DNA from: an uncultured Gammaproteobacteria bacterium
Lineage (GTDB): Bacteria > Patescibacteriota > Microgenomatia > JAMCZE01
DNA length: 64,000 nucleotides
Reading direction: 5' to 3'
NCBI GenBank assembly: GCA_964609775.1
Contig: CAZSSJ010000002.1
Coordinates: 19,260-83,259 of the forward strand
A program made the translations under genes and the position numbers. Positions 8,617 to 60,276 of the stretch are shown here, piece after piece. Position 1 is the first letter of the stretch. Every line of letters starts with the position of its first letter. A model generated the notes under the pieces. The model was given only the letters and a program-made list of their open reading frames with translations, was not told the origin of the DNA and made no database searches.

Positions 8617-10103
8617 CCAAAAATACTTTCTTTTTTCTCATTATCCTCCTCCTCCTGCTCATCCCCATTGTCGTCCCTCTTGTCCAGCCCGGTTTCTTTG
8701 TCTCTGATGATGGCGACTGGATGGTTATCAGGCTATCCGCTTTCCACGAAACCCTCAAAACCGGCCAGTTCCCGGTTCGCTTTTTAGAAAGGCTCAATCA
8801 TGGCTACGGCTACCCGGTGACTGACTTTCTTTATCCTCTACCTTTCTATTTGGGAGAAATAATCCATCTCCTGGGCTTCAATTTTGTCGATTCAGTAAAA
8901 ATTCTTTTTGGCATGAGTTTTCTTCTCGGGGCTTTTTCCATGTTTTTCTACGCCAAAGATAAGTGGGGGAATCAGATAGGAATTATTGCTGCCGTTTTTT
9001 ACACTTATTTTCCCTACCGAATTTTTGACGTCTACAAACGTGGCTCGCTGGGAGAATCAGTCGCTTTTGTCTTTATCCCTCTGGTCTTTCTTTTTTATGA
9101 CCGCTTAGTCACCACCAAAAATCTAATATATCTTTCGTTTGGCGCTCTAGCCACAGCAGCCATGATAACCTCTCACAATACCGTTGCTTTTCTTACGTTA
9201 CTTGTCCTCATCGCATATATAACTACTAATCTTTTCTCAAAGACCGAAAAAAAATGGCTAATACTGTCCTCTATGTCTTATCTTGGTCTCTCTTTGACTC
9301 TTTCCGCCTTTTTTGTTATTCCGGCCCTTGTTGACCTCCAGTTCACTAAGACAAGGTTAATCACAATTTCTGATCCAACACGGTTCTTTCTTTCGTTAGA
9401 CAATCTTTTAAGTCTAGCCGGCATCCCAATAATGTTGATCACCGGTGCAGCCATACACCTAATTCGTAAGGGATCACGCGGGGTGGTATTTTGGACAGCT
9501 ATATCAATAGTCTCAATCCTGATGGCCATGTCCGTTTCTGATGTCCTTTGGGCAAATCTATCGTCACTTTCTAAACTAGTCCAATTTCCTTGGCGCTTTC
9601 TTTCGATTACGGCTCTAGCCGGAGCAATCTTAACCGGATTTTTGTTAAGCCACTACAGAATCAAGATATTATTCCCCCTCCTCATAATCTTGCCTGTCAT
9701 TTTCTCAGGAATATTGACACTAAAAATAGACAGAACTTTTCACCCAGAAAGCTATTACACTACCAACGACGACAGCACTACTGTCAAGAACGAATATATG
9801 CCCATTTGGGTAAAAAAAGACCCCACCAACCTTCCTAAGGAAAAAATTGCCTGGATAGACTCAAATCTTGTTCGAGTCAACACTGTATACTTCCCCGGTT
9901 GGGCAGCCTATGTCAATGGGCAAGAAAGGGAAATAATCTACCAGGACGATGGCCTAATCAAATTCGCTGCCCGACCAGACGACAAAATTGAACTTCGCTT
10001 TGAAGAAACTCCACTGCGGGCGGAAGCTAACCTTGTCACCATTTTGGGAATCTTCCTGGCCTTGGCTTTAATACTTTTGCCCCCCAAAAGTCAAATCACA
10101 TGA
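8613..10103 (+). CDS. YfhO-related integral membrane protein of the COG5617 / '6-pyruvoyl-tetrahydropterin-synthase-related' type, putative GT-C
   Basis: DDGDWMVIRLSAFHETLKTGQFPVRFLERLNHGYGYPVTDFLYPLPFYLGEIIHLLG; C-terminal motif NTVYFPGWAAYVNGQ; many TM helices. Confidence 0.5.
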   Translation: MTKNTFFFLIILLLLLIPIVVPLVQPGFFVSDDGDWMVIRLSAFHETLKTGQFPVRFLERLNHGYGYPVTDFLYPLPFYLGEIIHLLGFNFVDSVKILFGMSFLLGAFSMFFYAKDKWGNQIGIIAAVFYTYFPYRIFDVYKRGSLGESVAFVFIPLVFLFYDRLVTTKNLIYLSFGALATAAMITSHNTVAFLTLLVLIAYITTNLFSKTEKKWLILSSMSYLGLSLTLSAFFVIPALVDLQFTKTRLITISDPTRFFLSLDNLLSLAGIPIMLITGAAIHLIRKGSRGVVFWTAISIVSILMAMSVSDVLWANLSSLSKLVQFPWRFLSITALAGAILTGFLLSHYRIKILFPLLIILPVIFSGILTLKIDRTFHPESYYTTNDDSTTVKNEYMPIWVKKDPTNLPKEKIAWIDSNLVRVNTVYFPGWAAYVNGQEREIIYQDDGLIKFAARPDDKIELRFEETPLRAEANLVTILGIFLALALILLPPKSQIT

Positions 10104-11749
10104 CAGGGAAAATTGTCATGCTAATTCTTGCCTCAATCATTCTGCTAGGATTTCTTGTCCGCCTATACAGACTTGGCAATATTCCTAACGGCTTTTTCTT
10201 TGACGAAGCCACCATTTCCTACCAGGCATATAGTTTACTCCAGACGGGTAAAGATACCTGGGGAACTGACTTTCCTTTATTGTCATTTAGAGATTATGGA
10301 GAGTACATTTTGCCAATCGGCGTTTATGGTCAAATTCCTAGTCTATTAATTGGAGGGCTAAATGTCTTATCTGCTCGGTTTCCCCATGCTATTTTGGGAA
10401 TACTTAGTGTCCCATTAGTATATTTTTTAGCCAAAGAACTGTTTAAGAACACTAAAATTTCTCTTTTATCTTCATTTTTACTAACAATATCACCTCTTTC
10501 AATTGGTTGGACACGTTTTGTGTTCGAAGGTAATTTCGGGACAGTCCTTTTCTTGAGTGGGACACTTCTTTTCGCCAGGTCTTTAAAAAAGCCCCGACTT
10601 CTACCCTGGTCAATCCTTTCTTTTGGTCTGTCAGCCCTTTCCTATCACATATTTTTAATCCTCACTCCACTTTACTTTTGCCTGCTCTCTCTCCTGAATC
10701 GAAAATCCCCAAGTCTGATTGGACACATAAGACCCATAACTCTCATCATCGTTGTTTTCTTCCTCGCCTGGATCCTGGCTGCTATCGCCTCAGGCGCTGG
10801 TCGGCAGCGCTTTTCCCAAGCCTCAACTCTTCTTACACCTCAAAAAATTGACAACCTCAACCATCAAATTGGCTACTGTTCAAACCAAATGTCTCTCACC
10901 CTGTGCAAAGTATTTCTAAATAAGCCAGTCTTAGCAGCGACCAGCTACCTGGAAAACTACCTCGCCCACTTTTCGCCGGTCTTTTTAGGATTTGACGGGA
11001 CATTCCTTCGCCAAAATGTCTTGCCCAAGTCGGGAATACTTTTACCTGTGGAAATGGTCGGCTTTTTCGTGGGATTATTTTTTCTTGTCAGATCACCTAC
11101 TTCTTTAGCGAGCCGGATTTTATTACCGATAATCCTGATCTATCCCGTGGCTAATAGCTTCACTGGTCTGGGAGAAATCAGCCGGATTGCCTTTGCCAGC
11201 CCCTTTCTCTCGCTTGTCGCCGCCTATGGTTTGGTGCGAATCACCCAAACTTTCCGGGTGTTTAAGCCCCCGCTTTTTCTGGCTATTCTTTACAGCGTTG
11301 TCAGTTTCCTCATCACTTATTTTCTAATCTTCCCCAAAACTAACGCCTACTACACCAATTTTGGCTACGACAAAGTATTTTCTTGGGTGCGGGCCAATCA
11401 GTCTAAATATGACCGGATTTTTATCTCCCGCAACTATGCCGGTTCCGTTCCCTACATTTCTGCCCAATTTTTCCTGCCCATTGATCCGCAGATGTTTCAA
11501 AGGGGTCAAGTGGAGAGAAAAAAATCGCCTGAGGGTTATTATCAGATTGAATCCGTTGACCAGAAATTTCGATTTTTTCAAAATTTACACTCTGAAGCTC
11601 TTAAGCCAAATGATTTTGTTGTCGCCACCCCTGAGGACATTCAATCTTATGCGCTAACGCCGAAATTTACTATAATTGATCCCACGGGGAGAAAACTGCT
11701 CCTTGGCGTTGAAGCAAATGAAATTTTGGCAAAAACTGCTGTCCCTTAG
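10100..11749 (+). CDS. GT39/PMT_2-family (ArnT-like) polyprenol-phosphate-sugar-dependent glycosyltransferase
   Basis: LVRLYRLGNIPNGFFFDEATISYQAYSLLQTGKDTWG…: a DE-containing first loop followed by multiple TM helices, then a soluble C-terminal domain. Confidence 0.6.
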   Translation: MTGKIVMLILASIILLGFLVRLYRLGNIPNGFFFDEATISYQAYSLLQTGKDTWGTDFPLLSFRDYGEYILPIGVYGQIPSLLIGGLNVLSARFPHAILGILSVPLVYFLAKELFKNTKISLLSSFLLTISPLSIGWTRFVFEGNFGTVLFLSGTLLFARSLKKPRLLPWSILSFGLSALSYHIFLILTPLYFCLLSLLNRKSPSLIGHIRPITLIIVVFFLAWILAAIASGAGRQRFSQASTLLTPQKIDNLNHQIGYCSNQMSLTLCKVFLNKPVLAATSYLENYLAHFSPVFLGFDGTFLRQNVLPKSGILLPVEMVGFFVGLFFLVRSPTSLASRILLPIILIYPVANSFTGLGEISRIAFASPFLSLVAAYGLVRITQTFRVFKPPLFLAILYSVVSFLITYFLIFPKTNAYYTNFGYDKVFSWVRANQSKYDRIFISRNYAGSVPYISAQFFLPIDPQMFQRGQVERKKSPEGYYQIESVDQKFRFFQNLHSEALKPNDFVVATPEDIQSYALTPKFTIIDPTGRKLLLGVEANEILAKTAVP

Positions 11750-13454
11750 CCCTCTTGTTGTTCTCTTTATCGCCTCATTTTGGTCCTGGAAGCCGCTTCT
11801 GGCCTCCGGCTTTTTTACAATTCATGACAACCAGCAGATCGCCCGGCTGTTTGAATTAAATAAAGCTCTTCTTGCTGGTCAGTTTCCCGTTCGCTGGGTG
11901 CCGGATCTGGGTTTTAGCTTTGGCTACCCGCTCTTTAATTTCTATCCGCCCCTGATTTATTATCTCGGCGAACTCTTTCATCTGTTGCTCGGGACAGGAT
12001 TCATTGACTCAATTAAGATAGTTTGGTTCGTCGCCCTGGTGGGATCGGGGATTGCCATGTACTTCTTGGCGAAAGAGTACTTTGGCAGAGCAGGAGGACT
12101 CGTTGCCGCGATGTTTTATGTTTACGCTCCCTACCACGCCGTCGACGCCTACGTCCGCGGGTCTTTGGCCGAACTTTTTTCTTTTGTTTGGCTCCCCCTC
12201 ATCCTGCTGGCATTGTATAAAATTGTGACTTTGCCAATAAGCTACGATCGTTGGATTTTGGCAAGCGGTATTCTCCTTGGCCTGCTGATGATCACCCACA
12301 ACCTCATTTTTCTCCCTTTTGTGGGAATATCAGCCCTTTGGTATTTTGCTCTAGTATTAATTTATCGCCGTAACGAACCGGTCCGTTATACTTTATACTT
12401 TATACTTTATACAGCCCTTTGTTTCGCTCTATCAGCCTTTTTCTGGCTGCCGGCGCTGGCTGAAAAACAATTCACCCTCGTTGACCAACTCCTGATTAAG
12501 AATCTGGCTTCCTACCAAATCCATTTTGTCTGCCCGCAGCAGTTATGGAACAGTCCCTGGGGTTTTGGCGGTTCGACTGCAGGTTGTCTTGATGGCCTGT
12601 CATTCAAACTCGGCAAGCTGCACATCTTGGCAGCCATAGCCTCTTTCGGGGCTGTCGCCTACCTCTGGCTTAAAGCTCACAAAAAGCTAGCGTTAGTAAT
12701 TCTTATATCTTATTTCTTATTTTTTATATCCCTGTTCATGACTACTGACTATTCAAAAATTTTGTGGGACAATTTTCCCCCTCTTTGGTACCTTCAGTTC
12801 CCCTGGCGTTTTCTGGAATTTGCCACCCTTTTTGCCGCGCTAATTGCGGGGAGTATCTTGGCGTTGGTCAAAAATATCCCCCTTAAAATATTGGTTACCA
12901 TAACGCTAATTTCGGCAATTCTCTACATCGAAGCTAAAAACTTCGTTCCCCAAACCCACCTCTTCACTGACACAGACGACCAAGAAACTTCTGATGAGCA
13001 AATTAAGTGGGTCATCAGTTCAACTTCGTTTGAGTATCTCCCAAAAGAAGTTGCCACTAGAGTCACAGACCTCGGGACCGTTTGGGTCGATATTGATCGA
13101 TCAAAAATTCCCCCCCGAAAGTATCAAGTTCTCTCCGGAAACTTGCAAAGCACCGAGGAAATATTTCTTCCCCATCGTTTCAAACTCACTGGCCAATTTA
13201 CAAACGAGACGACAATTCAAATTAATGTGGCAAACTTTCCCGGGTGGGAAGTGTGGCTCGATGGTTCCGAAGCACGCATCAGGGATAACAATGCCTATAA
13301 ATTGATCACTATCAATGTCCCCCCAGGAAACCATACACTAACTGGGCAATTTACCAATACCTGGCCGAGGTCCCTAGGTAACACCATTTCCATCATTGCA
13401 CTCATCGCGTTAGCCCTTTACTTTGGAAAATATGGAATTAGAAGAAGTTCTTAA
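11718..13454 (+). CDS. COG5617/PTPS-related-type membrane protein, paralogue 2 (the ORF could start at 11676)
   Basis: FTIHDNQQIARLFELNKALLAGQFPVRWVPDLGFSFGYPLFNFYPPLIYYLGELFHLL; C-terminus NVANFPGWEVWLDGSEARI. Confidence 0.5.
   Translation: MKFWQKLLSLSPLVVLFIASFWSWKPLLASGFFTIHDNQQIARLFELNKALLAGQFPVRWVPDLGFSFGYPLFNFYPPLIYYLGELFHLLLGTGFIDSIKIVWFVALVGSGIAMYFLAKEYFGRAGGLVAAMFYVYAPYHAVDAYVRGSLAELFSFVWLPLILLALYKIVTLPISYDRWILASGILLGLLMITHNLIFLPFVGISALWYFALVLIYRRNEPVRYTLYFILYTALCFALSAFFWLPALAEKQFTLVDQLLIKNLASYQIHFVCPQQLWNSPWGFGGSTAGCLDGLSFKLGKLHILAAIASFGAVAYLWLKAHKKLALVILISYFLFFISLFMTTDYSKILWDNFPPLWYLQFPWRFLEFATLFAALIAGSILALVKNIPLKILVTITLISAILYIEAKNFVPQTHLFTDTDDQETSDEQIKWVISSTSFEYLPKEVATRVTDLGTVWVDIDRSKIPPRKYQVLSGNLQSTEEIFLPHRFKLTGQFTNETTIQINVANFPGWEVWLDGSEARIRDNNAYKLITINVPPGNHTLTGQFTNTWPRSLGNTISIIALIALALYFGKYGIRRSS
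12386..12412. repeat. heptanucleotide tandem repeat (TTATACT) x3 plus a partial fourth copy, in frame inside the CDS
   Basis: Read directly: gttatactttatactttatactttatacag, encoding …RYTLYFILYT…. Confidence 0.8.
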
Positions 13455-15767: not shown

Positions 15768-15770
15768 TCT

Positions 15771-16700
15771 ATGGAAAAAACTGAACTCTCAATTGCCACC
15801 ATTCTCCATAACGAGGAGGCGAACGTTGTCGAACTCCACCGGAGATTAAGCACGGTCCTAAAAACCCTCAATAAAACCCATGAAATTATTTTGGTAGATG
15901 ATGGCAGCACTGACAGGACACTTGATAAACTCAAGACGCTTCGCCAAAAGGACAGATCCATCAAAATCATCTCTCTCTCGCGAAACTTCGGTATCGAGGC
16001 CGCCGCCACTGCCGCCCTAGATCACACCAGCGGAGAAATGGTTGTTCTCATGGACGGCGACCTTCAGGACGCCCCGGAATTCATTCCCTCACTCCTGAAT
16101 AAAATTGGACAGGGCTACGACGTCGTCTACGCCCAGCACCCAAAGAGAAAAGACACCCTCGTGAAGCAAGCACTTTTTGGTAGCTTTTATCGGCTGATGG
16201 ACAAACTGGCCGACTATAAATTTCCCGTTGACGTGGGTCATTTTTCCGTGATGAGACGGCCGGTTGTCGACGTGTTGACGCAAATGACGGAAAGAAATCG
16301 GTTTATTGCCGGACTTCGGGCTTGGGTGGGCTTCAAACAAACAGGAATCCTGTATGAAAAACAGGCCAGGTTTGCCGGCAAACCACCACAAACATTTAAA
16401 AAGTTGCTCAAAATGGGCTTTGATGCTTTGTTTTCTTTCTCGTACATCCCACTTCGAGTTGCAACATTAATGGGTCTATTGGTCGCTATTGGAACAATTA
16501 TTGTGATCATTAACGTTTTGTATCAAAAATTCGTCGTCAACACTGCTATTATCGGATGGGCTGGACCCATGCTCTCAATATTGATCATCGGAGGTGTGCA
16601 ACTTTTCATTCTCGGCATAATCGGGGAATATTTAGCCAGAATCTATGATGAAGTCAAAAGGCGTCCCTACTATATCGTCTCTGAGAAAATTGGTTTCTAA
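15771..16700 (+). CDS. GT2 polyprenyl-phosphate glycosyltransferase (GtrB/ArnC/DPM1-like) with C-terminal TM helices
   Basis: LSIATILHNEEANV…ILVDDGSTDRT…VVLMDGDLQDAPEFIP…, then two C-terminal hydrophobic helices (LMGLLVAIGTIIVIINV…ILIIGGVQLFILGIIGEY). This is the classic C55-P-sugar synthase architecture. Confidence 0.75.
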   Translation: MEKTELSIATILHNEEANVVELHRRLSTVLKTLNKTHEIILVDDGSTDRTLDKLKTLRQKDRSIKIISLSRNFGIEAAATAALDHTSGEMVVLMDGDLQDAPEFIPSLLNKIGQGYDVVYAQHPKRKDTLVKQALFGSFYRLMDKLADYKFPVDVGHFSVMRRPVVDVLTQMTERNRFIAGLRAWVGFKQTGILYEKQARFAGKPPQTFKKLLKMGFDALFSFSYIPLRVATLMGLLVAIGTIIVIINVLYQKFVVNTAIIGWAGPMLSILIIGGVQLFILGIIGEYLARIYDEVKRRPYYIVSEKIGF

Positions 16701-18378: not shown

Positions 18379-18380
18379 CT

Positions 18381-19187: not shown

Positions 19188-19273
19188 TCATCATCTTCGA
19201 ATTTGCAACAGTTTTGATGATTAATACACATCGAAATGCGGTGAACGCATAATATTTACCTTATGATGGGTAT

Positions 19274-22557: not shown

Positions 22558-23237
22558 AACTTTCCATCATCGTCCCAGCATATAACGAAGAAAAAACCAT
22601 TACTAAAGTCATCGATAAGTTATTGCGACTAAAAATCCGTGGTTGGCACAAAGACGTAATTGTCGTTGACGATGCTTCAACCGATCAAACACTCCAGCTT
22701 TTAAAAAACTACCGGGGAAAAATTACCCTCATCCATCACTTAGCCAACCGCGGAAAAACGGCGGCCATAAGGACTGCTGTTCGTCAGACAAGCGGTGATT
22801 ACATCATCATTCAGGATGCCGATCTCGAGTATGATCCCAAGGATATTCCCCTTCTGATTCGCGCTCTCGGTGATAGTAAAGACGCAGTTGTCTTTGGCTC
22901 CCGATTTGCAACGTCAAAGTATGTCGACACTGTCTTTGGTCACAAATTCGGCAACAAGTTGCTGACTCTTCTGGCAAATTTGCTCTACAGGTCAGACATT
23001 TCAGACATGGAAACTTGTTACAAACTCATTCCGGGTCCATTTCTTCGAAGCATCACCCTACAATCTGACCGTTTTGGTTTTGAACCGGAAATTACGGCCA
23101 AGGTGCTTCGAAGTGGGAGAAAAATCAAGGAAGTGCCTATTTCCTATGTCAAAAGATCAGTCACCGAAGGAAAGAGTATCCGTTGGTGGCGCGACGGCTG
23201 GGCCACGGTAGCCATACTGATTCGCTATCGTTTATGA
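22554..23237 (+). CDS. GT2, dolichyl/polyprenyl-phosphate sugar synthase-like (soluble DPM1-type)
   Basis: MKLSIIVPAYNEEKTITKVIDKL…VIVVDDASTDQT…IIIQDADLEYDPKDIPLL. Confidence 0.7.
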   Translation: MKLSIIVPAYNEEKTITKVIDKLLRLKIRGWHKDVIVVDDASTDQTLQLLKNYRGKITLIHHLANRGKTAAIRTAVRQTSGDYIIIQDADLEYDPKDIPLLIRALGDSKDAVVFGSRFATSKYVDTVFGHKFGNKLLTLLANLLYRSDISDMETCYKLIPGPFLRSITLQSDRFGFEPEITAKVLRSGRKIKEVPISYVKRSVTEGKSIRWWRDGWATVAILIRYRL

Positions 23238-24859: not shown

Positions 24860-24866
24860 GACACCC

Positions 24867-26402
24867 ATGGCCCGAGCAAGCTCCATCGTTTTACTGTTAG
24901 TAGTTATTCTGGCGAGCCTCTTGCGGTTGTATCGGATACAGACCAACCCGCCCTCACTCTATCGGGACGAAGTTTCGATCGGCTACAATGCCTATTCGAT
25001 CATCAGCACCGGCAAAGACGAGTGGGCAGCGGCCTTCCCGCAAACCTTTAAATCGTTCGGTGATTATAAATTGCCTTTGTATATCTATCTCGTGGCCGGA
25101 CTGGAAAAATTTCTTGGGCCGACTGAACTGGCCGTCCGCCTGCCCTCAGCACTTGCCGGCATTCTTTCTGTGGTAGTGATGTTCTTTTTAATGACTGAGA
25201 TAAAACTGTTGGTGTTAAAGCACTACCCCGACTTTAAATTTCTCCGCGGCTACACTCTAGCGCTTCTTTCGGCCTTGCTGTTGTCAATTTCCCCCTGGCA
25301 CCTCCAGTTCTCCAGGGCCGGCTTCGAAGCCGGTCTTGGTCTTCTGTTTTTGACGGCTTCGCTGGTCTTTTTTTTACTCTCGCTGCGAAAAAGCAGTCAC
25401 TTTTTCCTTCCCGCCGTCATTTCTGCTGTCGGGTGCTTTTACAGCTATCACAGCGCCGCTTTTGTCCTTCCCTTTCTCGCTCTCGCCGCCATAGCGATCT
25501 TTTTTCGCCCAGTCTTTTCCCGGGGGAAAATTGTTCTTGTTGGGCTCATCCTCGGAGCCGTCCTTTTAATGCCTTACCTTCCCCAATATTTCTCTGCCGG
25601 AACAAATCGAGTCGCTTTCACCGGTATTTCCGTTGTTAACCAGAAAGGGGACGTGCTTTCTAACTTTGTCCAAAATTACGTGGCCAACTTTTCCTTTGAC
25701 TATCTCTTTTTCAAGGGCGACCAGGAAGGCCGGCACTCCGTCAAGAAGCTCGGGGAACTCTATCTTTGGCAATTCCCGGCCGTTTTGGCCGGAATTTATT
25801 TTCTCCTTCGCTTCCGTTCAAAGGCCAGTGTTCTTCTCTTTGTCTGGCTGCTTGTCAGCGCCCTCCCCGTCGCCCTCACCCGCGTCTCCCCCCACGCCCT
25901 AAGAAACCTCATGGCCGTTTTTCCCTGGCAAGCCGTCTCGGCCTTCGGCCTCCTCTATGTTTTGCGCAAAACAAGAGCCGCCGGGGGCTTTATCTTTGCC
26001 ATAATCTTTGTTTATGCCCTGGTAACCTATCTTCACCAATACTACGTCCACTATCCCGTCTCCTATGCCGCCGATTGGCAAGATGGTCAAAAACAAGCAG
26101 TCACCTTCCTAAAACAGGTGGAAAAGAACTACTCCGAAATCTTTCTGACCAAAGATCTCTACCCTATATATTTAAAGTTCTTTTTGCCCTACCCTCCGCA
26201 GAAACTTCAAGAAAGCAGCCACAACGAAAGCCAATTGGGCAAATATAAATACCTAACTCCCGCCCAAGCCCCAAAGAAAGAATTTCCCGACCGGACTTCT
26301 CTGATGATTGCTCCTTCCTGGATGGGCTCCGATGTCATGCGAGCTCTCCCGTCGATTAAAATGACTAACGGTGATGTTGCCTTTCGCGTCTATGAATTTT
26401 AA
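24867..26402 (+). CDS. GT39/PMT_2-family glycosyltransferase, paralogue
   Basis: LRLYRIQTNPPSLYRDEVSIGYNAYSIISTGKDEWAAAFPQTFKSFGDYKLPLYIYL…ELAVRLPSALAG. Confidence 0.65.
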   Translation: MARASSIVLLLVVILASLLRLYRIQTNPPSLYRDEVSIGYNAYSIISTGKDEWAAAFPQTFKSFGDYKLPLYIYLVAGLEKFLGPTELAVRLPSALAGILSVVVMFFLMTEIKLLVLKHYPDFKFLRGYTLALLSALLLSISPWHLQFSRAGFEAGLGLLFLTASLVFFLLSLRKSSHFFLPAVISAVGCFYSYHSAAFVLPFLALAAIAIFFRPVFSRGKIVLVGLILGAVLLMPYLPQYFSAGTNRVAFTGISVVNQKGDVLSNFVQNYVANFSFDYLFFKGDQEGRHSVKKLGELYLWQFPAVLAGIYFLLRFRSKASVLLFVWLLVSALPVALTRVSPHALRNLMAVFPWQAVSAFGLLYVLRKTRAAGGFIFAIIFVYALVTYLHQYYVHYPVSYAADWQDGQKQAVTFLKQVEKNYSEIFLTKDLYPIYLKFFLPYPPQKLQESSHNESQLGKYKYLTPAQAPKKEFPDRTSLMIAPSWMGSDVMRALPSIKMTNGDVAFRVYEF

Positions 26403-26820
26403 CTTTCTCTGCACTAAGGACTGGATCCTCGGCGATGTTCCCCTTCAGCTCTGGGAAGCAACCACCGCCGATGGTCCCACCGCGAACGCTTTGCTGACTC
26501 GGTTTCTCCATAATAAGCCGATGTTTTATTTGGACAATTTTCTCCGCTGCTATCTGTCCTATCTTTCGGCAGACTTTTTGGTCAAAGCCTTCTCTCTCTT
26601 AGGATTAGGACTTTTCATTTTCGGAGTCTACCAAGCCATCCGACAGCGAAGAAAATGGCTGTTAAGCATTGTTCTAATGACCCCGTTGTTCCCCCTTTTT
26701 CAATTTCCCGCGGCTAACTTAGCCCAGGGAGTTCTTCTTTATGGTTCACAATTAGCCCTGATCTTGTTTGGTCTCCAACAACTCATTAAAATTCTAATAC
26801 AAAAATTCCGTGCGCCTTAA
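26371..26820 (+). CDS. hypothetical small membrane protein (two predicted TM helices); this ORF is the only one filling an otherwise empty 408-bp gap
   Basis: The ORF spans the gap exactly; hydrophobic stretches AFSLLGLGLFIFGVYQAI and LLSIVLMTPLFPLFQF…LALILFGL; I recognise no family. Confidence 0.3.
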   Translation: MMLPFASMNFNFLCTKDWILGDVPLQLWEATTADGPTANALLTRFLHNKPMFYLDNFLRCYLSYLSADFLVKAFSLLGLGLFIFGVYQAIRQRRKWLLSIVLMTPLFPLFQFPAANLAQGVLLYGSQLALILFGLQQLIKILIQKFRAP

Positions 26821-28399
26821 GCTACTTTTAATCAGCATAGTTCTCTTAGCCGCCATTCTCCGGCTCTATCGTTTGGCCAATGCCCCCCCCAGTCTCTACT
26901 GGGACGAAGCCTCAATTGGCTATAACGCCTACAGTATTGCCCAAACACTTCGCGACGAGCACGGCGAATTTTTGCCTCTGACGCGTTTCATCGCTTTTGG
27001 TGACTATAAACCACCGGGCTACATCTACGCTGCTGCTCTCTCCGTTAAGCTTTTTGGGCCAACGGAGTTTGTAGTCCGTCTACCCTCCGCTGCAGCAGGA
27101 ACTCTTTTGGTTCTCGTCAGTTTTTATCTCGCCCGAATGCTTACAGGAAACGCCAAACTAGGCCTGGTGACGGCCGCGCTTTTGGCTGTTTCTCCCTGGG
27201 CCCTCCAATTTTCCCGGGGCGCTTTCGAAGCCAATTTAGCCACTTTGTTTTCCTCTGCCGGACTCTACTTTTTTGTCCGAACCATTCGCACAAAAACACT
27301 TGCTTCGGGCATCTCTAGTGCCGTTTTTTTCGCGCTTTCCCTGTACACTTTTAATTCCCACCGCGTCTTTGTCCCAGCAGTCATTGGTGCTCTGGGTCTA
27401 ATTTACTTTCGGGAGATTTGGCGCAGCAGGGGACAATGGTTAGTTTTTTTGTTAGCTCTACTTCTTCTGCTTGCTCCCCTAATCCCTCATCTGCTTTCCC
27501 GCGAGGGACAGCTTCGCTTCTATGAAGTTACTTGGCTAAACGATCTCGCCCCCATTGAACTTTCTAATTCGCGGACGGCTGTCGACGGTAACACCTGGTG
27601 GTCAGGATTAATCCACAACCGGCGGATCATTTTTTCCCAAGAGTTTCTGAAGCACTACACCGACCATTTCCGGGCTGAATTTTTGTTCTTCTCCGGGGAC
27701 GTCAATCCCCGGCTGTCGATCCAAACTGTCGGCGAAATGTACTGGCTGGATCTACCACTCCTCTTGATTGGAGTCTTCATCTTGGTCAAAAAGCGCCGCC
27801 GGGCCGCTCTTGTTCTCCTCGCCTGGGTTGTCCTTTCTCCTGTCCCCGCCGCCACCGCCCGCGAAACCCCCCACGCCCTACGCATCCTCCACATCCTGCC
27901 CTCATTGCAAATCGTCGCTGCCTTTGGCCTTTTGACCTTTTGGAAACTAGATTCCTTTAAAAAAATCCGTCTGCTTCTCGTCCCCATTTATGGTCTTTTT
28001 ATCATCATGTATCTTCATGACTATTACGTTCACTACCCGAAATTCTATTCCTCCGACTGGCAGTACGGCTATAAAGAAATGGTAGGTTTTGTTTCTTCAC
28101 TCCAGGACAAGTACGACCACATCAGTGTTACTGACACTTTGGGCAGACCCTACATCTATCTACTGTTCTATCAAAAATACCCCCCCGAAAAATACTGGGC
28201 AAACCGTCAGGTACGCCGCGATTGGTATGGCTTTTGGTACGTCGACGGCTTTGACAAATATACATTTGGAGGTCCGTTGCCTCCTGGCCGTTCGCTCATC
28301 GTTTCCGGTCCGCAGCCAATTCCCGGCAATTGGCAGCTCCTGAAGTCCGTCACTGACCCGCAAGGAAACACCGTCTTTCAAATAAGCGAAAAGGACTAA
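26810..28399 (+). CDS. GT39/PMT_2-family glycosyltransferase, paralogue
   Basis: LRLYRLANAPPSLYWDEASIGYNAYSIAQTLRDEHGEFLPLTRFIAFGDYKPPGYIYA…FVVRLPSAAAG; C-terminus WQYGYKEMVGFV…GRPYIYLLFYQKYPP. Confidence 0.65.
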   Translation: MRLKLLLISIVLLAAILRLYRLANAPPSLYWDEASIGYNAYSIAQTLRDEHGEFLPLTRFIAFGDYKPPGYIYAAALSVKLFGPTEFVVRLPSAAAGTLLVLVSFYLARMLTGNAKLGLVTAALLAVSPWALQFSRGAFEANLATLFSSAGLYFFVRTIRTKTLASGISSAVFFALSLYTFNSHRVFVPAVIGALGLIYFREIWRSRGQWLVFLLALLLLLAPLIPHLLSREGQLRFYEVTWLNDLAPIELSNSRTAVDGNTWWSGLIHNRRIIFSQEFLKHYTDHFRAEFLFFSGDVNPRLSIQTVGEMYWLDLPLLLIGVFILVKKRRRAALVLLAWVVLSPVPAATARETPHALRILHILPSLQIVAAFGLLTFWKLDSFKKIRLLLVPIYGLFIIMYLHDYYVHYPKFYSSDWQYGYKEMVGFVSSLQDKYDHISVTDTLGRPYIYLLFYQKYPPEKYWANRQVRRDWYGFWYVDGFDKYTFGGPLPPGRSLIVSGPQPIPGNWQLLKSVTDPQGNTVFQISEKD

Positions 28400-29778
28400 T
28401 GACCAGATTTCTTTTGACTGTCAGTTTTGTCATTTTGACTCTCCTCTCTTGGGTCCTTCTGTTGCGTGACGAGCAAGCAATCACCGCCTTGGGTGACTTC
28501 TCTTTGCATTTGGGAACAACCCTAACCTCCTTTCGTCAAACCCTGCTTCATTATGGCCTCAACAGCCTCGTCAGCCTCCTTTTTGCCATGTGTGTCATCA
28601 TTGCTTTTGGGGCATACTTTCAAGCCTTGCGTCAAAAAATTTCTTTAAACCAAGCGTTGCTTTTCTCCGCCATCTTTCCGGCCATTGTCTTTTTCTCCTA
28701 CCCCGCTTTGTCTACGGACATCTTTGACTATATCCTTTCTGACCGTCTCGCCGTAATTTTTGGCGCCAATGTCTGGACAACGCCCCCCTCGGCTTTGATT
28801 CCTCCCGCCGATCCCTACTTTCAACTCACCAGTTGGGGATCCCAAGTAAATCCCTATGGTCCACTCAATCAGTTTTTCTATTTGCTTGCCGGGCTGGCCT
28901 CGATGAATAATTTCTGGCTAAGCTTAGCTGCCCATAAACTCTTGCCTTTAACTTTTCTTTTGGCTTCTTTAGTTGTCGTCTCTAAAACGTTACAAAAATA
29001 TTATCCTCAGTCACAAAGTCAAGGCATCATCCTTCTCTTTTGGAATCCTCTGTTCATTCTAGAAACAGCCGGTTCCGGCCATAATGATATCTTGTGGATC
29101 TTTTTTGCCCTAGCCGCTATCTATTTTTGGCTGGGAAAAAAATTTTTTATTTCCGGCTTGCTTTTAGCTCTAGCCGTCCAGGTCAAATTCATTCCCGTCA
29201 TCCTCTTTATATTCTTGCTGGCCTCGTTAACAAGCAAGGAACGGCAAGGTGCTTTGCAATTTGCCGGTGCCTTTATAACAGTAAACATCCTGGCCTTTTT
29301 ATACTTAGGCTCAGCGGTGTTTCCCTTTCTAACTAGGCTGGTTCTGGGAGCAAGCATCTATTGGCAATCGCTGCCACAACTTGTCCATCCTCTCTACGGC
29401 CAGGAGAAAATCTTCTTCACCACCTCCTTCTTACTATTATTAACGTCCGCTCTTATCCTTGTTCTCAAACAACGAATTACTCCGCTGCTGGGATACGTAG
29501 TGGTCATGTTCTTCTACCTACTCCTCCTGACCTCCGTCTATTGGAACTGGTACATCCTCTGGATCCTCTTCCTAATCCCTTTTCTGGGCAAAACCCGTTT
29601 GACTCGTCCGATCCTCATCTTTTCTGCCACCTCCCTTCTTGCCTACCCGCTCTATTGGCTGTCGCTCCGCTTTGGTTTCGGCAGTCTCTCCTGGCAGGTT
29701 ATAATATATCTGTTTATTGCTTTGCCCCCACTGGCAAGCTTTTTCCATGAGAAAATTATTCGACGACCACAAGACTGA
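28399..29778 (+). CDS. polytopic membrane protein, DUF2029/GT87-like putative glycosyltransferase
   Basis: YPALSTDIFDYILSDRLAVIFGANVWTTPP in the first extracytoplasmic loop; about 11 TM helices. Confidence 0.35.
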   Translation: MTRFLLTVSFVILTLLSWVLLLRDEQAITALGDFSLHLGTTLTSFRQTLLHYGLNSLVSLLFAMCVIIAFGAYFQALRQKISLNQALLFSAIFPAIVFFSYPALSTDIFDYILSDRLAVIFGANVWTTPPSALIPPADPYFQLTSWGSQVNPYGPLNQFFYLLAGLASMNNFWLSLAAHKLLPLTFLLASLVVVSKTLQKYYPQSQSQGIILLFWNPLFILETAGSGHNDILWIFFALAAIYFWLGKKFFISGLLLALAVQVKFIPVILFIFLLASLTSKERQGALQFAGAFITVNILAFLYLGSAVFPFLTRLVLGASIYWQSLPQLVHPLYGQEKIFFTTSFLLLLTSALILVLKQRITPLLGYVVVMFFYLLLLTSVYWNWYILWILFLIPFLGKTRLTRPILIFSATSLLAYPLYWLSLRFGFGSLSWQVIIYLFIALPPLASFFHEKIIRRPQD

Positions 29779-31252
29779 CCTTCTTGTTTTTGGGGGATTA
29801 ATTCTTGCCTACTTTCTCACCCGGCTTCCCCGCTTGGATCTCATCCCAATCTTCACTGACGAGGCCATCTATCTTCGCTGGAGTCAGATCATGGCCTATG
29901 ATGCCTCGCTGCGCTATCTGCCTCTGGTCGACGGTAAACCACCACTTTTTATGTGGGCTACCTCTATTGTTCTTAAACTGTTTCCGAGTCTTGACCCACT
30001 GCTTTCTCTCAGATTAACTTCGGTCGGGGGTGGCCTCTTTTCCATGGCCGGGATAATTTTTACCTCGTATGTGTTTTTTCGCAATAAACGCATTTCTTTG
30101 CTGGCGGCCTTGCTCTATCTTGTCGTCCCCTTCACATTTTTTTATGACCGCTTTGGTTTGGCCGATAGCCTTTTGGCCGCCTTTGGAGTCTGGAGTCTTG
30201 GGTTGGGGGCTTTGCTTGTCCAGTCGATCCGCCTTGACGTGGCACTGATACTTGGGACGGCGATTGGCTTAGGACTTTTGACGAAAACCCCGGCGCTATT
30301 TTTCCTCGTCACTTTGCCGTTGCAACTCCTCCTCTTTAATTTCAAAACCAGTGGATGGAAGATTCGACTTGTGAAGTTATTTCTCCTGTTTTTATTGGTC
30401 GTAATAATTTCCCAAGCCATCTTTTCGATCCTTCGGCTTTTCCCCTTGTTTCATATGATTTCTCAAAAAAACTTGGAATTTATCGTTACTCCGGCAGAAT
30501 TTCTCGCCCGGCCCTTCGAATTCTTTTTTAACAATCTCAAAACATTGCTCACCTGGGAAGTTGGCTACCTCACTGCCCCTGTCGCTTTGACCATCGCTTT
30601 TGCCTTTCTTAGAGGCCAGGCCGTTAAGCAAAATCTCATTCTGGCAGCCATCTTTCTCATCCATCTGCTTTATATGTCCACCTTTAACAAATCAATTTTT
30701 CCCCGTTTCTTGCTCACTTTCACTCCGGGCTTGTTGGTTTTGGCGGCCGTCGGGCTTGACCAAATGTCAACTCGTCTTCGTCCGTCATTACTCGTCTTGG
30801 TCTTTGTCCTCGTCCTGGCGCTCCCAGTTTATACCGATTTCAAACTTCTAACCGATCCTCCGACTGCTCCAATTCCCGATGGCGATTCCAAGCAGTACAT
30901 CAACGCCTGGCCGGCCGGCTATGGAGTCAAGGAAATTCGCCAGTTTTTGGCCCGGGAAAGTAGCCAATATCCAAAAGTGACTATCGGCACCGAAGGCACC
31001 TTCGGGCTTATGCCCTATGCCCTGCAGCTCTATCAAAAAGACTACCCTAATGTCGAAATCAAAGACTATTGGCCCTTGGGAGAGACAGTGCCGGCAGCAT
31101 TATTGGAAGCCTCGGCCAACCACCCCACCTACTTCATTATCTACCAGCGGCCAGATGTGCCCCCGAACTGGAAGCTGCGTTTGGTCGCCTCCTTCCAGCA
31201 AGGACGAAGTAATGACTATCTCCGACTCTATCAGATTTTACCCGAAGATTGA
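29747..31252 (+). CDS. GT39/GT83-like (ArnT-type) membrane glycosyltransferase, divergent
   Basis: LTRLPRLDLIPIFTDEAIYLRWSQIMAYDASLRYLPLVDGKPPLFMW: a DE motif loop followed by TM helices, then a C-terminal soluble domain. Confidence 0.5.
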   Translation: MRKLFDDHKTDLLVFGGLILAYFLTRLPRLDLIPIFTDEAIYLRWSQIMAYDASLRYLPLVDGKPPLFMWATSIVLKLFPSLDPLLSLRLTSVGGGLFSMAGIIFTSYVFFRNKRISLLAALLYLVVPFTFFYDRFGLADSLLAAFGVWSLGLGALLVQSIRLDVALILGTAIGLGLLTKTPALFFLVTLPLQLLLFNFKTSGWKIRLVKLFLLFLLVVIISQAIFSILRLFPLFHMISQKNLEFIVTPAEFLARPFEFFFNNLKTLLTWEVGYLTAPVALTIAFAFLRGQAVKQNLILAAIFLIHLLYMSTFNKSIFPRFLLTFTPGLLVLAAVGLDQMSTRLRPSLLVLVFVLVLALPVYTDFKLLTDPPTAPIPDGDSKQYINAWPAGYGVKEIRQFLARESSQYPKVTIGTEGTFGLMPYALQLYQKDYPNVEIKDYWPLGETVPAALLEASANHPTYFIIYQRPDVPPNWKLRLVASFQQGRSNDYLRLYQILPED

Positions 31253-32910
31253 AAGTTATGACCCGCAAGATCTGGATCATCCTCCTGAGCATTGTCCTTC
31301 TGGGTGCTTTCCTTCGTTTTTACCTGCTTGGCAAAATCCCTGCCAGTCTTGACTGGGATGAAGCCTCCATCGGCGACAATGCCTATTCACTTTTAAAAAC
31401 CAGCAGCGATGAATACGGTAACCGCTTCCCGCTCTCCATTCGCTCTTTCAACGACTACAAGCCCCCCCTCTATGTCTATGCCACTATTCCCAGCATTGCC
31501 CTTTTTGGCAAGAATGAATTTGCCATCCGTTTCCCTTCCGCTTTCGTCGGTACCCTTTCAATTTTAGCAACTTTTCTGCTGATTCAACAACTTCTCAACT
31601 TCCGAAGGGAGAAAAATTCATTGCATTATTGCATTATTGCATTATTGATTTCTTTCCTCTTGGCCGTCTCTCCCTGGCACATCCAGTTTAGCCGGCTCGC
31701 CTTTGAAGCCAATCTCGCCCTCTTTTTTAGTCTCTGCGGGTGGCTGTTCCTCACTAAATTCATCTCCCAGGGGAGATGGTGGCCCATTATTCCATCGACA
31801 CTAAGCTACGTGCTTGCCCTCTATAGTTATCACAGCGCCCGCCTGGTAGTTCCTCTTTTTCTTTTAGGAATCGGATTCTACTATCACCGAATATTATTTG
31901 CCCGGATTAAAACGGTCCTTGTTGGCCTGGGTCTTGCTATAGTCCTCCTCCTGCCTTTAGCCCTGTCCACACTTCAGACGACAAGCCTGCAAGCCCGCTG
32001 GGGCGAGGTGAGCATTTTTTCTTCAGCGGGACTGCGCGATACCGTCAAAGTCACCCTCGACGCCCAGCAAGAATATTGGCGGCAAGACAAGCTCCAGGGC
32101 GATCGCCTGGCCCGGCTGATCCACACTAAATTTATCTCCTACAGCCGACTGCTGGCCAAAAACTACCTCGACCACTTCAATTTCAGTTTTCTTTTCCTTG
32201 AAGCCGATGGCAACGGTCGGCACCACGCTCCGGGGATGGGCCTTCTCTATCTTGTTGAGGCGCCGTTCCTCCTCTATGGAGGCTATCTGCTTCTTAGGAG
32301 GCGCCCGACCTACTCATTTTTTCTTGTGTGGGCTTTTCTCGTCGCCCCCTCGGCTGCCAGCCTGACTGCTGATACCCCCCACGCCGTCCGCTCCCTATCC
32401 TTCCTCCCCAGCTTTCAAATCATCACCGCCTTCGGCCTTTACAGTCTGTTGTCAAAAGTCAAAACTCTTTTCCGAGGGCCACTGCTACTTTTGATCAGTC
32501 TTCTTTTCCTGGCTAATTTTTACTACTTTTTCCACCAATATTTTGTCCATTTCGGAATCGAGCACGCTTCTTCTTTTCAATACGGCTACAAGGAGATGGT
32601 CGCCAAAGTCCGCGCCCTAAGTGGAGAATTTGACCAGATCTATGTCACTGTGAAATATGACCAACCCTACATCTATTTTCTTTTCTATGGCCACTCCGAT
32701 CCCAGAATAAAAAATGACGGGACCTTCCAACTAAGCTTTGATAAATACCGTTTTGTCAATTGGGGAGAACTGACAAACGAGCAAAAATCTAATTTGAGCC
32801 CGAAAATCTTGGCCGTCCACGCCCCCGATGACTTTTTTAGCCCCCATGTCATTCTTGACAAGATCTATTACCCGGACGGGAAAGTTGTTTTCGTCCTCAG
32901 CCACATGTGA
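31249..32910 (+). CDS. GT39/PMT_2-family glycosyltransferase, paralogue
   Basis: LRFYLLGKIPASLDWDEASIGDNAYSLLKTSSDEYGNRFPLSIRSFNDYKPPLYVYA…FAIRFPSAFVG; C-terminus FQYGYKEMVAKV…DQPYIYFLFYGHSDP. Confidence 0.65.
   Translation: MKVMTRKIWIILLSIVLLGAFLRFYLLGKIPASLDWDEASIGDNAYSLLKTSSDEYGNRFPLSIRSFNDYKPPLYVYATIPSIALFGKNEFAIRFPSAFVGTLSILATFLLIQQLLNFRREKNSLHYCIIALLISFLLAVSPWHIQFSRLAFEANLALFFSLCGWLFLTKFISQGRWWPIIPSTLSYVLALYSYHSARLVVPLFLLGIGFYYHRILFARIKTVLVGLGLAIVLLLPLALSTLQTTSLQARWGEVSIFSSAGLRDTVKVTLDAQQEYWRQDKLQGDRLARLIHTKFISYSRLLAKNYLDHFNFSFLFLEADGNGRHHAPGMGLLYLVEAPFLLYGGYLLLRRRPTYSFFLVWAFLVAPSAASLTADTPHAVRSLSFLPSFQIITAFGLYSLLSKVKTLFRGPLLLLISLLFLANFYYFFHQYFVHFGIEHASSFQYGYKEMVAKVRALSGEFDQIYVTVKYDQPYIYFLFYGHSDPRIKNDGTFQLSFDKYRFVNWGELTNEQKSNLSPKILAVHAPDDFFSPHVILDKIYYPDGKVVFVLSHM
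31620..31643. repeat. octanucleotide tandem repeat (ATTGCATT) x3 plus a degenerate fourth copy, in frame inside the CDS
   Basis: Read directly: aattc attgcatt attgcatt attgcatt attgattt; encodes …LHYCIIALLI…. Confidence 0.8.
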
Positions 32911-34478
32911 CTAGGAAAGTAGTTTTTTTCTTAATCATCGTTCTTGCCGCCCTGCTGCGCCTGGCCTATCTGGCAGGAGCCCCCCCGAGTCTCAATTGGG
33001 ACGAGGTCTCGGTCGGTTGGAACGCCTATTCTCTTTTAACAACCAGCCGTGACGAATATGGCCAGTCCTTTCCTCTCTCCATTCGCTCCTTCAACGACTA
33101 TAAACCTCCCCTCTACACCTACGCGACCGCTGCCGCCATGGCTCTTCTTGGCAAAACTGAGATTGCCGTCCGGTTGCCTTCCGCTCTGGCCGGCCTTTTA
33201 ACGGTGGTTTTAATTTTTTTCCTTGGTCGAGTGAGCGGGCTGGGTGGCAAAGCGAACTTCCGTTTTGCCTATCTCTCCGCTTTCCTTCTGTCCGTCTCCC
33301 CCTGGCACATCCAGCTTAGCCGTATTGCCTTTGAAGCCAGTCTGGCCCTCTTTTTTTTCCTCTTTGGACTGGCCTTGATACTTTTCTATTTCCGTCACCC
33401 CACCACAAAGCTGCTGGCCATCCTCAGCGCTACCGGTTTTGTTCTGTCAACTTACGCTCACCATAGTGTCAAGATATTTCTACCGTTGTTTACCCTCCTC
33501 TTTGCTGCGGCTTACCGTCAACAAATTACTAAAAACTGGCCCAAACTACTTCCTGCCCTTGTCATTGGCGCGATCCTTCTTCTACCTCTAGGAAGAAACA
33601 TGCTCTACACCTCTGGTCAAGCCACCCGGGCACTTACGGTGAGCATTTTCGCCCCGGAAAACCAATTTCATTTCCAGGGAAAATCAACGCTGCAAGTTTT
33701 GACGGAAAACTATCTGTCTCATCTTGATCCCGCCTTCTTGTTCTTTGGCCGGGGTGACAATCCCCGGCATCACGCCCCAGATACAGGTGTTGTCCTCCTC
33801 TGGACTGCCCCCTTTATCATTCTTGGTCTAATTTACCTCATCAGACACCGACCAAAATATCTCGCGCTGCTCCTAATTTGGTTTGTCCTATCGCCCGTCC
33901 CGGCGATTCTCTCCATCGACAATCCCCACGCCAGCCGCTCCTTTCTCAGCCTCCCCATCTACGTTTTTCTCACTGCGCTGGGAATACTGTTTCTTGCCAA
34001 GCGAAGAGCGCTTGCCGCTTTGGGCATAGGGTTGCTGTTGGTGTTTAATCTGCTCTATTTCTTCCATCAATACTTTAGCGATCTGTCGATAAGAGATGCC
34101 CCGGCTTGGCAGTATGGTTATAAACAGCTTGTCGAACGCCTCGACTCTGTCTCTTCTAGTCGCTACCGGAAAATTTATGTCTCCACTGCCTATGACCAAC
34201 CCTACATTTATTTTCTTTTCTATGGCCACTCCGACCCATGGATAAAAAATGACGGCAGTTTTTCCCAAGCGTTGGGAAAAATCTCTTTTGTCAACTTTAA
34301 AAATTGGAGGCAATCCGATTGGGACGCCCTTGACGCTGACGATCTATTAGTTCTAACTTCAACTGATCCCCAAGATGGCTTAACAATCATTGAGGAGATA
34401 AACTATCCCGATAGTCAGGTTGCTTTTCGAATTACTCAACCAATCTCACGCCATGGCGTAATTTTGATTACACCCTAG
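32907..34478 (+). CDS. GT39/PMT_2-family glycosyltransferase, paralogue
   Basis: LRLAYLAGAPPSLNWDEVSVGWNAYSLLTTSRDEYGQSFPLSIRSFNDYKPPLYTYA…; C-terminus WQYGYKQLVERL…DQPYIYFLFYGHSDP, closely related to the preceding gene. Confidence 0.65.
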   Translation: MTRKVVFFLIIVLAALLRLAYLAGAPPSLNWDEVSVGWNAYSLLTTSRDEYGQSFPLSIRSFNDYKPPLYTYATAAAMALLGKTEIAVRLPSALAGLLTVVLIFFLGRVSGLGGKANFRFAYLSAFLLSVSPWHIQLSRIAFEASLALFFFLFGLALILFYFRHPTTKLLAILSATGFVLSTYAHHSVKIFLPLFTLLFAAAYRQQITKNWPKLLPALVIGAILLLPLGRNMLYTSGQATRALTVSIFAPENQFHFQGKSTLQVLTENYLSHLDPAFLFFGRGDNPRHHAPDTGVVLLWTAPFIILGLIYLIRHRPKYLALLLIWFVLSPVPAILSIDNPHASRSFLSLPIYVFLTALGILFLAKRRALAALGIGLLLVFNLLYFFHQYFSDLSIRDAPAWQYGYKQLVERLDSVSSSRYRKIYVSTAYDQPYIYFLFYGHSDPWIKNDGSFSQALGKISFVNFKNWRQSDWDALDADDLLVLTSTDPQDGLTIIEEINYPDSQVAFRITQPISRHGVILITP

Positions 34479-56462: not shown

Positions 56463-56471
56463 AATAGATTT

Positions 56472-57284: not shown

Positions 57285-57293
57285 ACTTTTGCT

Positions 57294-59520: not shown

Positions 59521-59532
59521 TTTGCCATCCCT

Positions 59533-60258: not shown

Positions 60259-60276
60259 TTACTTGAGTTAATACCT

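Follow-up and report, generated by a model that had tools for sequence, protein, structure and literature searches.

Six old GT-C paralogues ending in a shared domain that is missing from Pfam form a tandem array conserved among Microgenomates and probably decorate the cell surface

Our analysis of a 64-kb window of Microgenomates DNA (contig CAZSSJ010000002.1 of assembly GCA_964609775.1, positions 19,260 to 83,259; all coordinates below count from the first letter of this window) centres on six open reading frames (ORFs) on its + strand. The products are clear paralogues, but old rather than close ones, that are predicted to carry the GT-C_A glycosyltransferase fold and that all end in a domain of ~117 residues, which seems to be previously undescribed and is missing from Pfam. 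We think it reasonably likely that the six are outer-face transferases which use polyprenyl-phosphate-sugar donors and serve one acceptor position each on an envelope glycopolymer made by the glycan island around them; in other words, they probably decorate the cell surface. A GT-C transferase with a polyprenyl-phosphate-sugar donor is already known and represents ordinary enzymology, of which the six are a lineage-specific variant set apart by the C-terminal domain and the conserved tandem organisation.

Named here by the start of their ORFs, the six genes extend from 10100 to 11749 (paralogue 1; 549 aa and the most divergent), from 23234 to 24859 (paralogue 2; 541 aa counted from the ATG, with the ORF opening at a TTG at 23183), from 24867 to 26402 (paralogue 3; 511 aa, whose outer loop is shortened), from 26810 to 28399 (paralogue 4; 529 aa and the reference used for modelling), from 31249 to 32910 (paralogue 5; 553 aa with a TTG start or, alternatively, an ATG at 31258) and from 32907 to 34478 (paralogue 6; 523 aa with a 4-bp overlap with paralogue 5). 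They align end to end (pairwise BLASTP E 1e-23 to 1e-99), which bears out the first-pass annotation of this DNA in so far as it had placed six paralogues at these starts. Its view that they are close is, however, at odds with pairwise identities of only 27-40%, with 31249/32907 as the closest pair (40.5%) and with 10100 standing apart from the rest at 27-30%. Recent duplication as the origin of the six was rejected, since orthologues elsewhere are up to 56% identical and so exceed the identity that the paralogues share with each other. The protein encoded at 26810 is 100% identical to a hypothetical protein (UY21_C0001G0054) from Microgenomates bacterium GW2011_GWA1_48_10.

With respect to family membership, Pfam PMT_2 (PF13231) matches all six, and four of them pass its gathering threshold of 26.1 bits with scores of 38-61 bits (41.4 for paralogue 1 and 58.7 for paralogue 2). 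The other two, 24867 (22.8 bits) and 31249 (25.5 bits), fall slightly under this cut-off, yet they are full-length homologues of the other four. The protein O-mannosyltransferase (PMT) family PF02366, whose cut-off is 22.7 bits, matches four of the six (27-43 bits; 27 for paralogue 1, 39 for paralogue 2) and leaves two without a match; MIR and PMT_4TMC domains were not found in any of them by Pfam at E<=0.01, nor was there a Pfam match to STT3 (PF02516). Among NCBIfam models, TIGR03663 (Agl23) is nearest for five of the six, at 18-45 bits versus a cut-off of 126.25 and restricted to the N-terminal ~180 residues (model positions 3-182 of 435), and the ArnT equivalog NF009784 gives a sole match of 25.9 bits (paralogue 2) versus its 567-bit cut-off. 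For the six, which have ArnT-like features too and pass no curated NCBIfam cut-off, the label 'GT39' is only nominal. The broader idea of a PMT/ArnT-like family, as put forward earlier, is upheld by the PMT_2 matches and by a GT-C fold recognised at Foldseek probability 1.0 (see below).

Our motif comparison gave a more differentiated picture than the common motif set that had initially been ascribed to all six. What holds throughout is the Asp-Glu pair of loop 1, which is invariant in the six (codons at 10202-10207, 23324-23329, 24966-24971, 26903-26908, 31357-31362 and 33000-33005 in paralogues 1 to 6, respectively) and in an alignment of 77 sequences; the remaining motifs are found in four or five genes. 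Thus, 10100 reads KDTWG for RDEYG and DYGEY for DYKPP and so is without the second DE and without KPP, 24867 deviates by DYKLP, WQDGQK and a degraded PYIY motif, and 23234 by WFYGYK and PQNF. Conservation of the DE loop had been set beforehand as one of two points on which the prediction would stand or fall, and in 283 family sequences out of 80 genomes we find D32 in 280 and E33 in 281. The same count gives R358 in 283 and R136 and R90 in 281 each, with R18, P26, D49, P56, P129 and G308 as further near-invariant positions and with K or R at the KPP lysine position in 265. Broken down by region, identity among the six is highest in the catalytic loop (50%), followed by transmembrane (TM) helices 2-8 (37%) and TM9-12 (31%), whereas the C-terminal domain (28%) and the outer loop (27%) show the lowest values.

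The 26810 protein was modelled by AlphaFold2 on the basis of 77 homologues, with a mean predicted local distance difference test score (pLDDT) of 95.3. When compared by Foldseek with the Protein Data Bank (PDB), the model matched STT3/AglB/PglB at probability 1.0 and with the lowest E-values (4e-9 to 1e-7), ArnT at probability 1.0 (best TM-score 0.56) and Pmt4 and Pmt1-Pmt2 at probability 1.0 (PMT E-values of 2e-5 or worse); ALG9/12, DPY19, Emb and AftD are on the same list, again at probability 1.0. By this modelling, all six paralogues are predicted to carry the GT-C_A fold. In a sequence-profile search of the PDB, ArnT was the sole significant relative (E 2e-4, covering TM2-8) and the KPP motifs align; in ArnT, the lysine of this motif is reported to be in contact with the phosphate of the carrier. 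When a profile was made of the first 150 residues, it aligned the DE pair with FDEVHFG of Pmt4/Pmt1 and R90 with the conserved PMT arginine in a collinear fashion, albeit at marginal E-values (0.05-1.2). As for topology, positively charged loops in the 77 sequences comprise the N-terminus and residues 156-163, 199-206, 325-331 and 380-386, and the first outer (DE) loop carries a net charge of -3. Because positive charge clusters in alternate loops, we infer ~11 TM helices with the N-terminus inside and with catalytic loop 1, a loop of ~90 aa and the ~117-aa C-terminal domain on the outside.

The C-terminal domain was delimited in paralogue 4 (residues 413-529; 28046-28396), where AlphaFold2 models and a hidden Markov model (HMM) describe an alpha/beta unit, predicted to be extracytoplasmic, that starts with WQYGYK. 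An HMM of these residues was searched against all six-frame ORFs of the window with at least 80 aa and matched exactly the six (E 2.5e-19 to 3.7e-51), with the next match at E 0.35. Together with the alignment it places the domain at 11345-11746 in paralogue 1 (E 5.6e-22), 24494-24856 in paralogue 2 (E 2.2e-26), 26064-26399 in paralogue 3 (E 2.5e-19), 32566-32907 in paralogue 5 (E 4e-28) and 34101-34475 in paralogue 6 (E 4.6e-29), all on the + strand. So the first-pass annotation was right to see a domain common to the six, the size of which we revise from ~180 aa to ~117 aa. Its secondary structure follows the order helix, strand, two helices and six strands, and when modelled alone by AlphaFold2 it reaches a pLDDT of 91. 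The domain had been thought to lie outside Pfam, and we indeed obtained no Pfam match at E<=10 and no PDB match by sequence profile; the Foldseek check that had been recommended for it gave no match in the PDB either (best E 0.13, TM-score <=0.26), and known carbohydrate-binding modules were not matched among Pfam families or solved structures. Moreover, hhalign against E. coli ArnT covered only TM2-8 and left the two C-terminal domains unaligned.

A profile made from the six window copies retrieved 2165 cluster representatives among 1.84 billion proteins, in all of which the domain forms the C-terminus of ~500-600-aa proteins of this family. Matches of 100-250 aa, which might have indicated a stand-alone form, were rejected because they come from fragmentary gene calls (P0122 corresponds to the tail of 31249, P0124 to that of 10100). 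With 20% aromatic residues, the composition of the domain would agree with sugar binding but is no proof of it. Its opening motif W-Q-Y-G-Y-K follows right after the last TM helix and recalls W-W-D-Y-G-Y-Q, found at the equivalent place in STT3. This link to the STT3 WWDYG motif is a lead and not evidence, as the six residues alone align and score no better (hhalign E 0.011) than a reversed control (E 0.023).

Other PMT_2 genes of the window (29717, 46352, 358 and 40880) were considered as a seventh member and rejected, BLASTP and the domain HMM assigning them to other subfamilies. Among those tested, only 29717, a sister-subfamily protein encoded within the array (29717-31252 on the + strand; 511 aa, PMT_2 41.8 bits), relates to the six at profile level. 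Although BLASTP detected no match to the six paralogues, a profile-profile comparison by hhalign with the six-gene family yielded a probability of 99.2% (E 5e-20) and an alignment that reaches the C-terminus. On its own, the 29717 tail matches the C-terminal domain at E 0.017 and may be a distant version of it. Because the match of this sister subfamily extends to the C-terminus, the domain may be older than the six-gene family.

To judge how far the array reaches beyond this genome, we rely on a pattern scan of one genome per species, which found at least 575 loci; our distribution figures cover the best 80 of these, selected on the 26810 gene. They come from Gottesman-, Chisholm-, Curtiss-, Levy-, Roizman- and Woesebacteria or from unnamed Patescibacteria, and in 76 of the 80 between two and seven family copies lie within ~21 kb. 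Altogether the 80 loci hold 277 full-length family genes that make up 197 neighbour pairs; in 186 of these both genes share a strand, and in 135 the gap between them is below 200 bp. A paralogue phylogeny, as had been advised, was built as a neighbour-joining tree without bootstrap and resolved separate orthogroups conserved across Microgenomates, with 31249 and 32907 sharing one group. Apart from the selection gene 26810, which is by choice present in 80 of 80 loci, the 23234 orthogroup occurs in 63, that of 10100 in 25 and that of 24867 in 6, and an order of 23234-like, 24867-like, 26810-like and 31249-like genes repeats in three loci (L002, L005, L006). Because separate orthogroups go together with recurring arrays and gene order, the multi-copy array appears to be ancient and to characterise the lineage as a whole rather than just this genome, and it would involve a division of labour among the paralogues. 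The earlier suggestion that so many copies imply different positions or targets fits our data: the orthogroups are separate, and the outer loop and the C-terminal domain are the most divergent parts (27-28% identity versus 50% in the catalytic loop). Many of the metagenome-assembled genome records that bear arrays (L001, L003, L008, L009 and others) are titled 'uncultured Gammaproteobacteria' and one (L015) 'Bacteroidota'; to us, such titles suggest placeholders or mis-binning.

Between paralogues 3 and 4 the array contains a mini-gene (26392-26820 on the + strand; 142 aa with three hydrophobic segments) that has no Pfam match and is homologous to the outer loop of the family and the TM helices that follow (BLASTP to 26810 residues 242-345, E 1e-5). 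According to tblastn it recurs in the corresponding place of no fewer than seven further loci (L002, L005, L006, L077, L026, L014 and L025), and it looks like a retained derivative of a family member.

Donor supply may be provided for in the immediate surroundings of the array. Just ahead of paralogue 2 lies a soluble GT2 (22554-23237 on the + strand; 227 aa, Pfam GT2), a probable polyprenyl-phosphate-hexose synthase whose best solved relative is the dolichol-phosphate-mannose synthase (DPMS) from P. furiosus (5mlz, E 8e-17) and whose nearest NCBIfam models are AglJ, PpgS and dolichol-phosphate (Dol-P)-hexose transferase, all under cut-off. Its stop overlaps the start of 23234 by 4 bp, so that it is translationally coupled to paralogue 2, and it would provide the donor. 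A relative of it lies within ~10 kb in 31 of the 80 loci, and relatives of the array GT2s are near family arrays in 31-58 of them. The 22554 protein consists of the catalytic domain alone, and because the membrane helices of the Pyrococcus enzyme are absent from it, a membrane partner may perhaps be needed. Further upstream, a GtrB/ArnC/PgfS-type membrane GT2 (15771-16700 on the + strand; 309 aa) qualifies as a polyprenyl-phosphate sugar synthase by its PDB and NCBIfam matches (GtrB 5ekp at E 8e-78 over the full length, ArnC at E 1.7e-43, PgfS at 249 bits), and 42104 resembles PpgS by NCBIfam.

Most of the 64-kb stretch is given to glycan genes in this genome. The window genes are nearly all on the + strand and tightly packed with many 4-bp overlaps, and by Pfam they include at least seven small GT2s, GT4s, a Wzx-type flippase (13423) and a Wzm/Wzt exporter of the ATP-binding cassette (ABC) type, along with an acyltransferase, a PIG-L deacetylase and methyltransferases. 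The + strand stretch from 55257 to 60915, in which Acyl_transf_3 (55257), the Wzm/Wzt exporter (56472 and 57294, with a weak Wzt_C match), the PIG-L deacetylase (60277) and several methyltransferases are found, suggests an ABC-transporter-dependent polysaccharide pathway that could provide the acceptor.

How, then, might the six operate? In the scenario that we favour, cytoplasmic GT2s of the same operon (DPMS-like 22554, GtrB-like 15771 and PpgS-like 42104) would load sugar onto polyprenyl phosphate, the lipid-linked sugar would then be flipped outwards across the membrane, and there each paralogue would move it, with inversion of configuration, onto an extracytoplasmic acceptor. In this transfer, the base would be the Asp of the Asp-Glu pair, K67 and the outer-face arginines R136 and R358 may hold the phosphate, and the choice of acceptor would be left to two parts, the outer loop with its low conservation and the C-terminal domain with its many aromatic residues. 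Because it is these divergent parts that would select the acceptor, every one of the separate ancient orthogroups may be responsible for a position or linkage of its own. As acceptor, a cell-envelope glycopolymer produced by the 60-kb glycan island around the array is most likely, more so than a set of six different proteins. As to the polyprenol-phosphate-sugar donor, which the first-pass annotation had taken for granted, its class is something we infer from the fold and from gene context (22554 and 15771), not something demonstrated.

Several of our observations weigh against this scenario. Sequence similarity to characterised enzymes is remote (ArnT E 2e-4, PMT E 0.05-1.2), no curated NCBIfam cut-off is passed by the six, and the spatial clustering of conserved residues in the 26810 model is an assumption from homology. 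Paralogue 1 is without K67 and the second acidic motif and so may use a different donor or be non-canonical. In addition, there is no GtrA-type flippase among the window ORFs, the sole leftover small membrane ORF being the mini-gene 26392-26820, which is without a Pfam match. The acceptors of PMT_2 enzymes from other sources range over lipids, polysaccharides and proteins, and in the literature on GT39/PMT_2/ArnT-like arrays in Microgenomates and the candidate phyla radiation (CPR) we found nothing relevant.

Could the six instead be true GT39 enzymes, i.e. paralogues or Pmt1-Pmt2-like heterodimers of neighbours that mannosylate Ser/Thr residues of different secreted, pilin or S-layer proteins using polyprenyl-phosphate-mannose? 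The loop-1 signature DE-x3-G-x2-A aligns with FDEVHFGKFA of PMTs and R90 with R138 of Pmt1, four of the six pass the PF02366 cut-off, a DPMS-like GT2 (22554) is coupled to paralogue 2, the ~11-TM topology that we infer is PMT-like and adjacent pairs overlap by 4 bp. We nonetheless regard such a role as unlikely, with PMT fold matches (E 2e-5 or worse) weaker than those to oligosaccharyltransferases (OSTs) and ArnT (4e-9), with MIR and PMT_4TMC absent, and with neighbours of a polysaccharide type (Wzx, Wzm/Wzt and many other GT-C genes) among which the window offers no Ser/Thr-rich target gene. Bacterial Pmt is, moreover, normally single-copy. To our minds it is quite improbable, too, that ArnT- or Rgt-like enzymes are at work here which glycosylate a membrane lipid or a polymer anchored to one, such as a glycolipid or something akin to lipoteichoic acid, and not wall polysaccharide or protein: the NCBIfam ArnT equivalog scores 25.9 bits versus 567, the hhalign alignment with E. 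coli ArnT is limited to TM2-8 with the C-terminal domains unaligned, and the Microgenomates lineage is not expected to have a lipid A pathway. This stands against the best TM-score of 0.56 for ArnT, its position as sole PDB sequence-profile match (E 2e-4, KPP included) and the presence in the same island of an ArnC/GtrB-type GT2 and of four YfhO proteins, YfhO being an enzyme that glycosylates teichoic acids in Firmicutes.

A further option, to which we give hardly any credence, sees some or all of the six as non-transferases, namely Agl23-like helpers that flip polyprenyl-phosphate-sugars across the membrane. The near-absolute conservation of the DE pair and of the outer-face arginines in the 283 sequences is what one expects from a catalytic site, and a Wzx-type flippase is present at 13423. 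While TIGR03663, 'flippase activity-associated protein Agl23', is nearest among NCBIfam models for five of the six, it scores 18-45 bits versus the 126-bit cut-off and over the first ~180 residues alone. In favour of such helpers, the window is without a GtrA flippase, paralogue 1 is without K67, and purified Agl23 from H. hispanica is needed for translocation of lipid-linked glycans in liposomes (PMC11182771).

A more far-reaching scenario may be envisaged, which we consider rather doubtful: the tandem orthogroups and ~15 other GT-C genes would form an assembly line for a Microgenomates-specific surface glycan, the C-terminal domain would represent a new carbohydrate-binding fold that holds the acceptor, and coupled neighbours would be heteromers. 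Were this true, such a surface glycan could mediate attachment of these ultrasmall bacteria to hosts, and the assembly-line logic would be comparable to that of mycobacterial arabinogalactan and lipoarabinomannan. The CPR cell envelope is almost uncharacterised, although attachment to, or dependence on, other cells is the way of life of these bacteria. The six genes, with their invariant DE pair and their clearly delimited domain of 117 aa, are concrete candidates for the building or decoration of the Microgenomates surface.

The six are embedded in a larger group of ~21 predicted GT-C-type membrane proteins encoded within ~47 kb (358-47593 on the + strand), a density that is unusually high for a small genome. 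Within the array itself lies a GT87-type GT-C protein (28399-29778; 459 aa, Pfam GT87 30.4 bits). Elsewhere, and likewise on the + strand, Pfam identifies the four YfhO proteins (1854, 3971, 6292 and 20347) and two PTPS_related proteins (8613-10103 and 37536-39206), to which 11676-13454 can probably be added, which has no Pfam match but shares the C-terminal FPGW motif with them; the remainder comprises a PIG-V-like protein (40880), the PMT_2 proteins at 358, 29717 and 46352 and unassigned polytopic proteins at 16645, 36082 and 45235. PTPS_related-type and YfhO proteins have in common a C-terminal motif, …(Y)FPGW…DG…, that is distinct from the six-paralogue domain. The sole sizeable minus-strand gene of the region (34475-35122) encodes a protein with a PaaX_M/Cas2-like domain (62.8 bits), possibly a regulator. 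It runs towards paralogue 6, the two genes overlapping by 4 bp, and none of the 80 related loci holds a relative of it. Both GC skew and AT skew are negative nearly throughout the window on the coding strand (C/T-rich), which is probably no replication signal but an effect of composition, given membrane proteins that are rich in Leu and Phe.

Among known systems, ArnT (GT83; 5ezm/5f15) shares with the six the GT-C_A fold and a K-P-P motif that aligns at the start of TM2, and it, too, has a small C-terminal outer domain and uses a polyprenyl-phosphate-sugar donor. Identity, however, is ~12%, and the ~11 TM helices that our topology predicts compare with 13 in ArnT. PMTs (GT39; Pmt1-Pmt2 6p25, Pmt4 9e61/9i5k) resemble them in the PMT/PMT_2 matches, in a loop-1 DE at the position of Pmt1 D77-E78 and in an N-in/C-out arrangement with ~11 TM helices, but in contrast to PMTs the six carry an extra C-terminal domain and come in multiple tandem copies. 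A soluble domain after the last TM helix is shared with STT3/AglB/PglB (GT66), where it is far larger and where the Asp of WWDYG takes the place of the Gln in (D)WQYGYK; these OSTs have a pyrophosphate-linked oligosaccharide as their donor. Agl23, a putative haloarchaeal hexose-phosphate-dolichol flippase, differs in that its models span 435 positions and are without the C-terminal domain.

In terms of gene organisation, three-component systems (GtrA/GtrB/GtrC, CsbB-YfhO, streptococcal GacI-GacL and the Pgf system of S. mutans) come close, as here a GtrB orthologue, DPMS-like GT2s and GT-Cs are combined in one operon that adjoins polysaccharide export. Unlike these systems, though, the island has ~20 GT-C genes instead of one, a lineage-specific GT-C subfamily and no GtrA-type flippase in the window. 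Many different GT-Cs also serve the mycobacterial envelope (EmbA-C, AftA-D, PimE, GT87 mannosyltransferases and PpgS/Rv3779), and GT87 and PpgS-like genes are present in our window as well. Here the resemblance is one of organisation alone and not of orthology: the mycobacterial set draws on polyprenyl-phosphate-sugars to assemble, on the far side of the membrane, a single complex glycan of the envelope.

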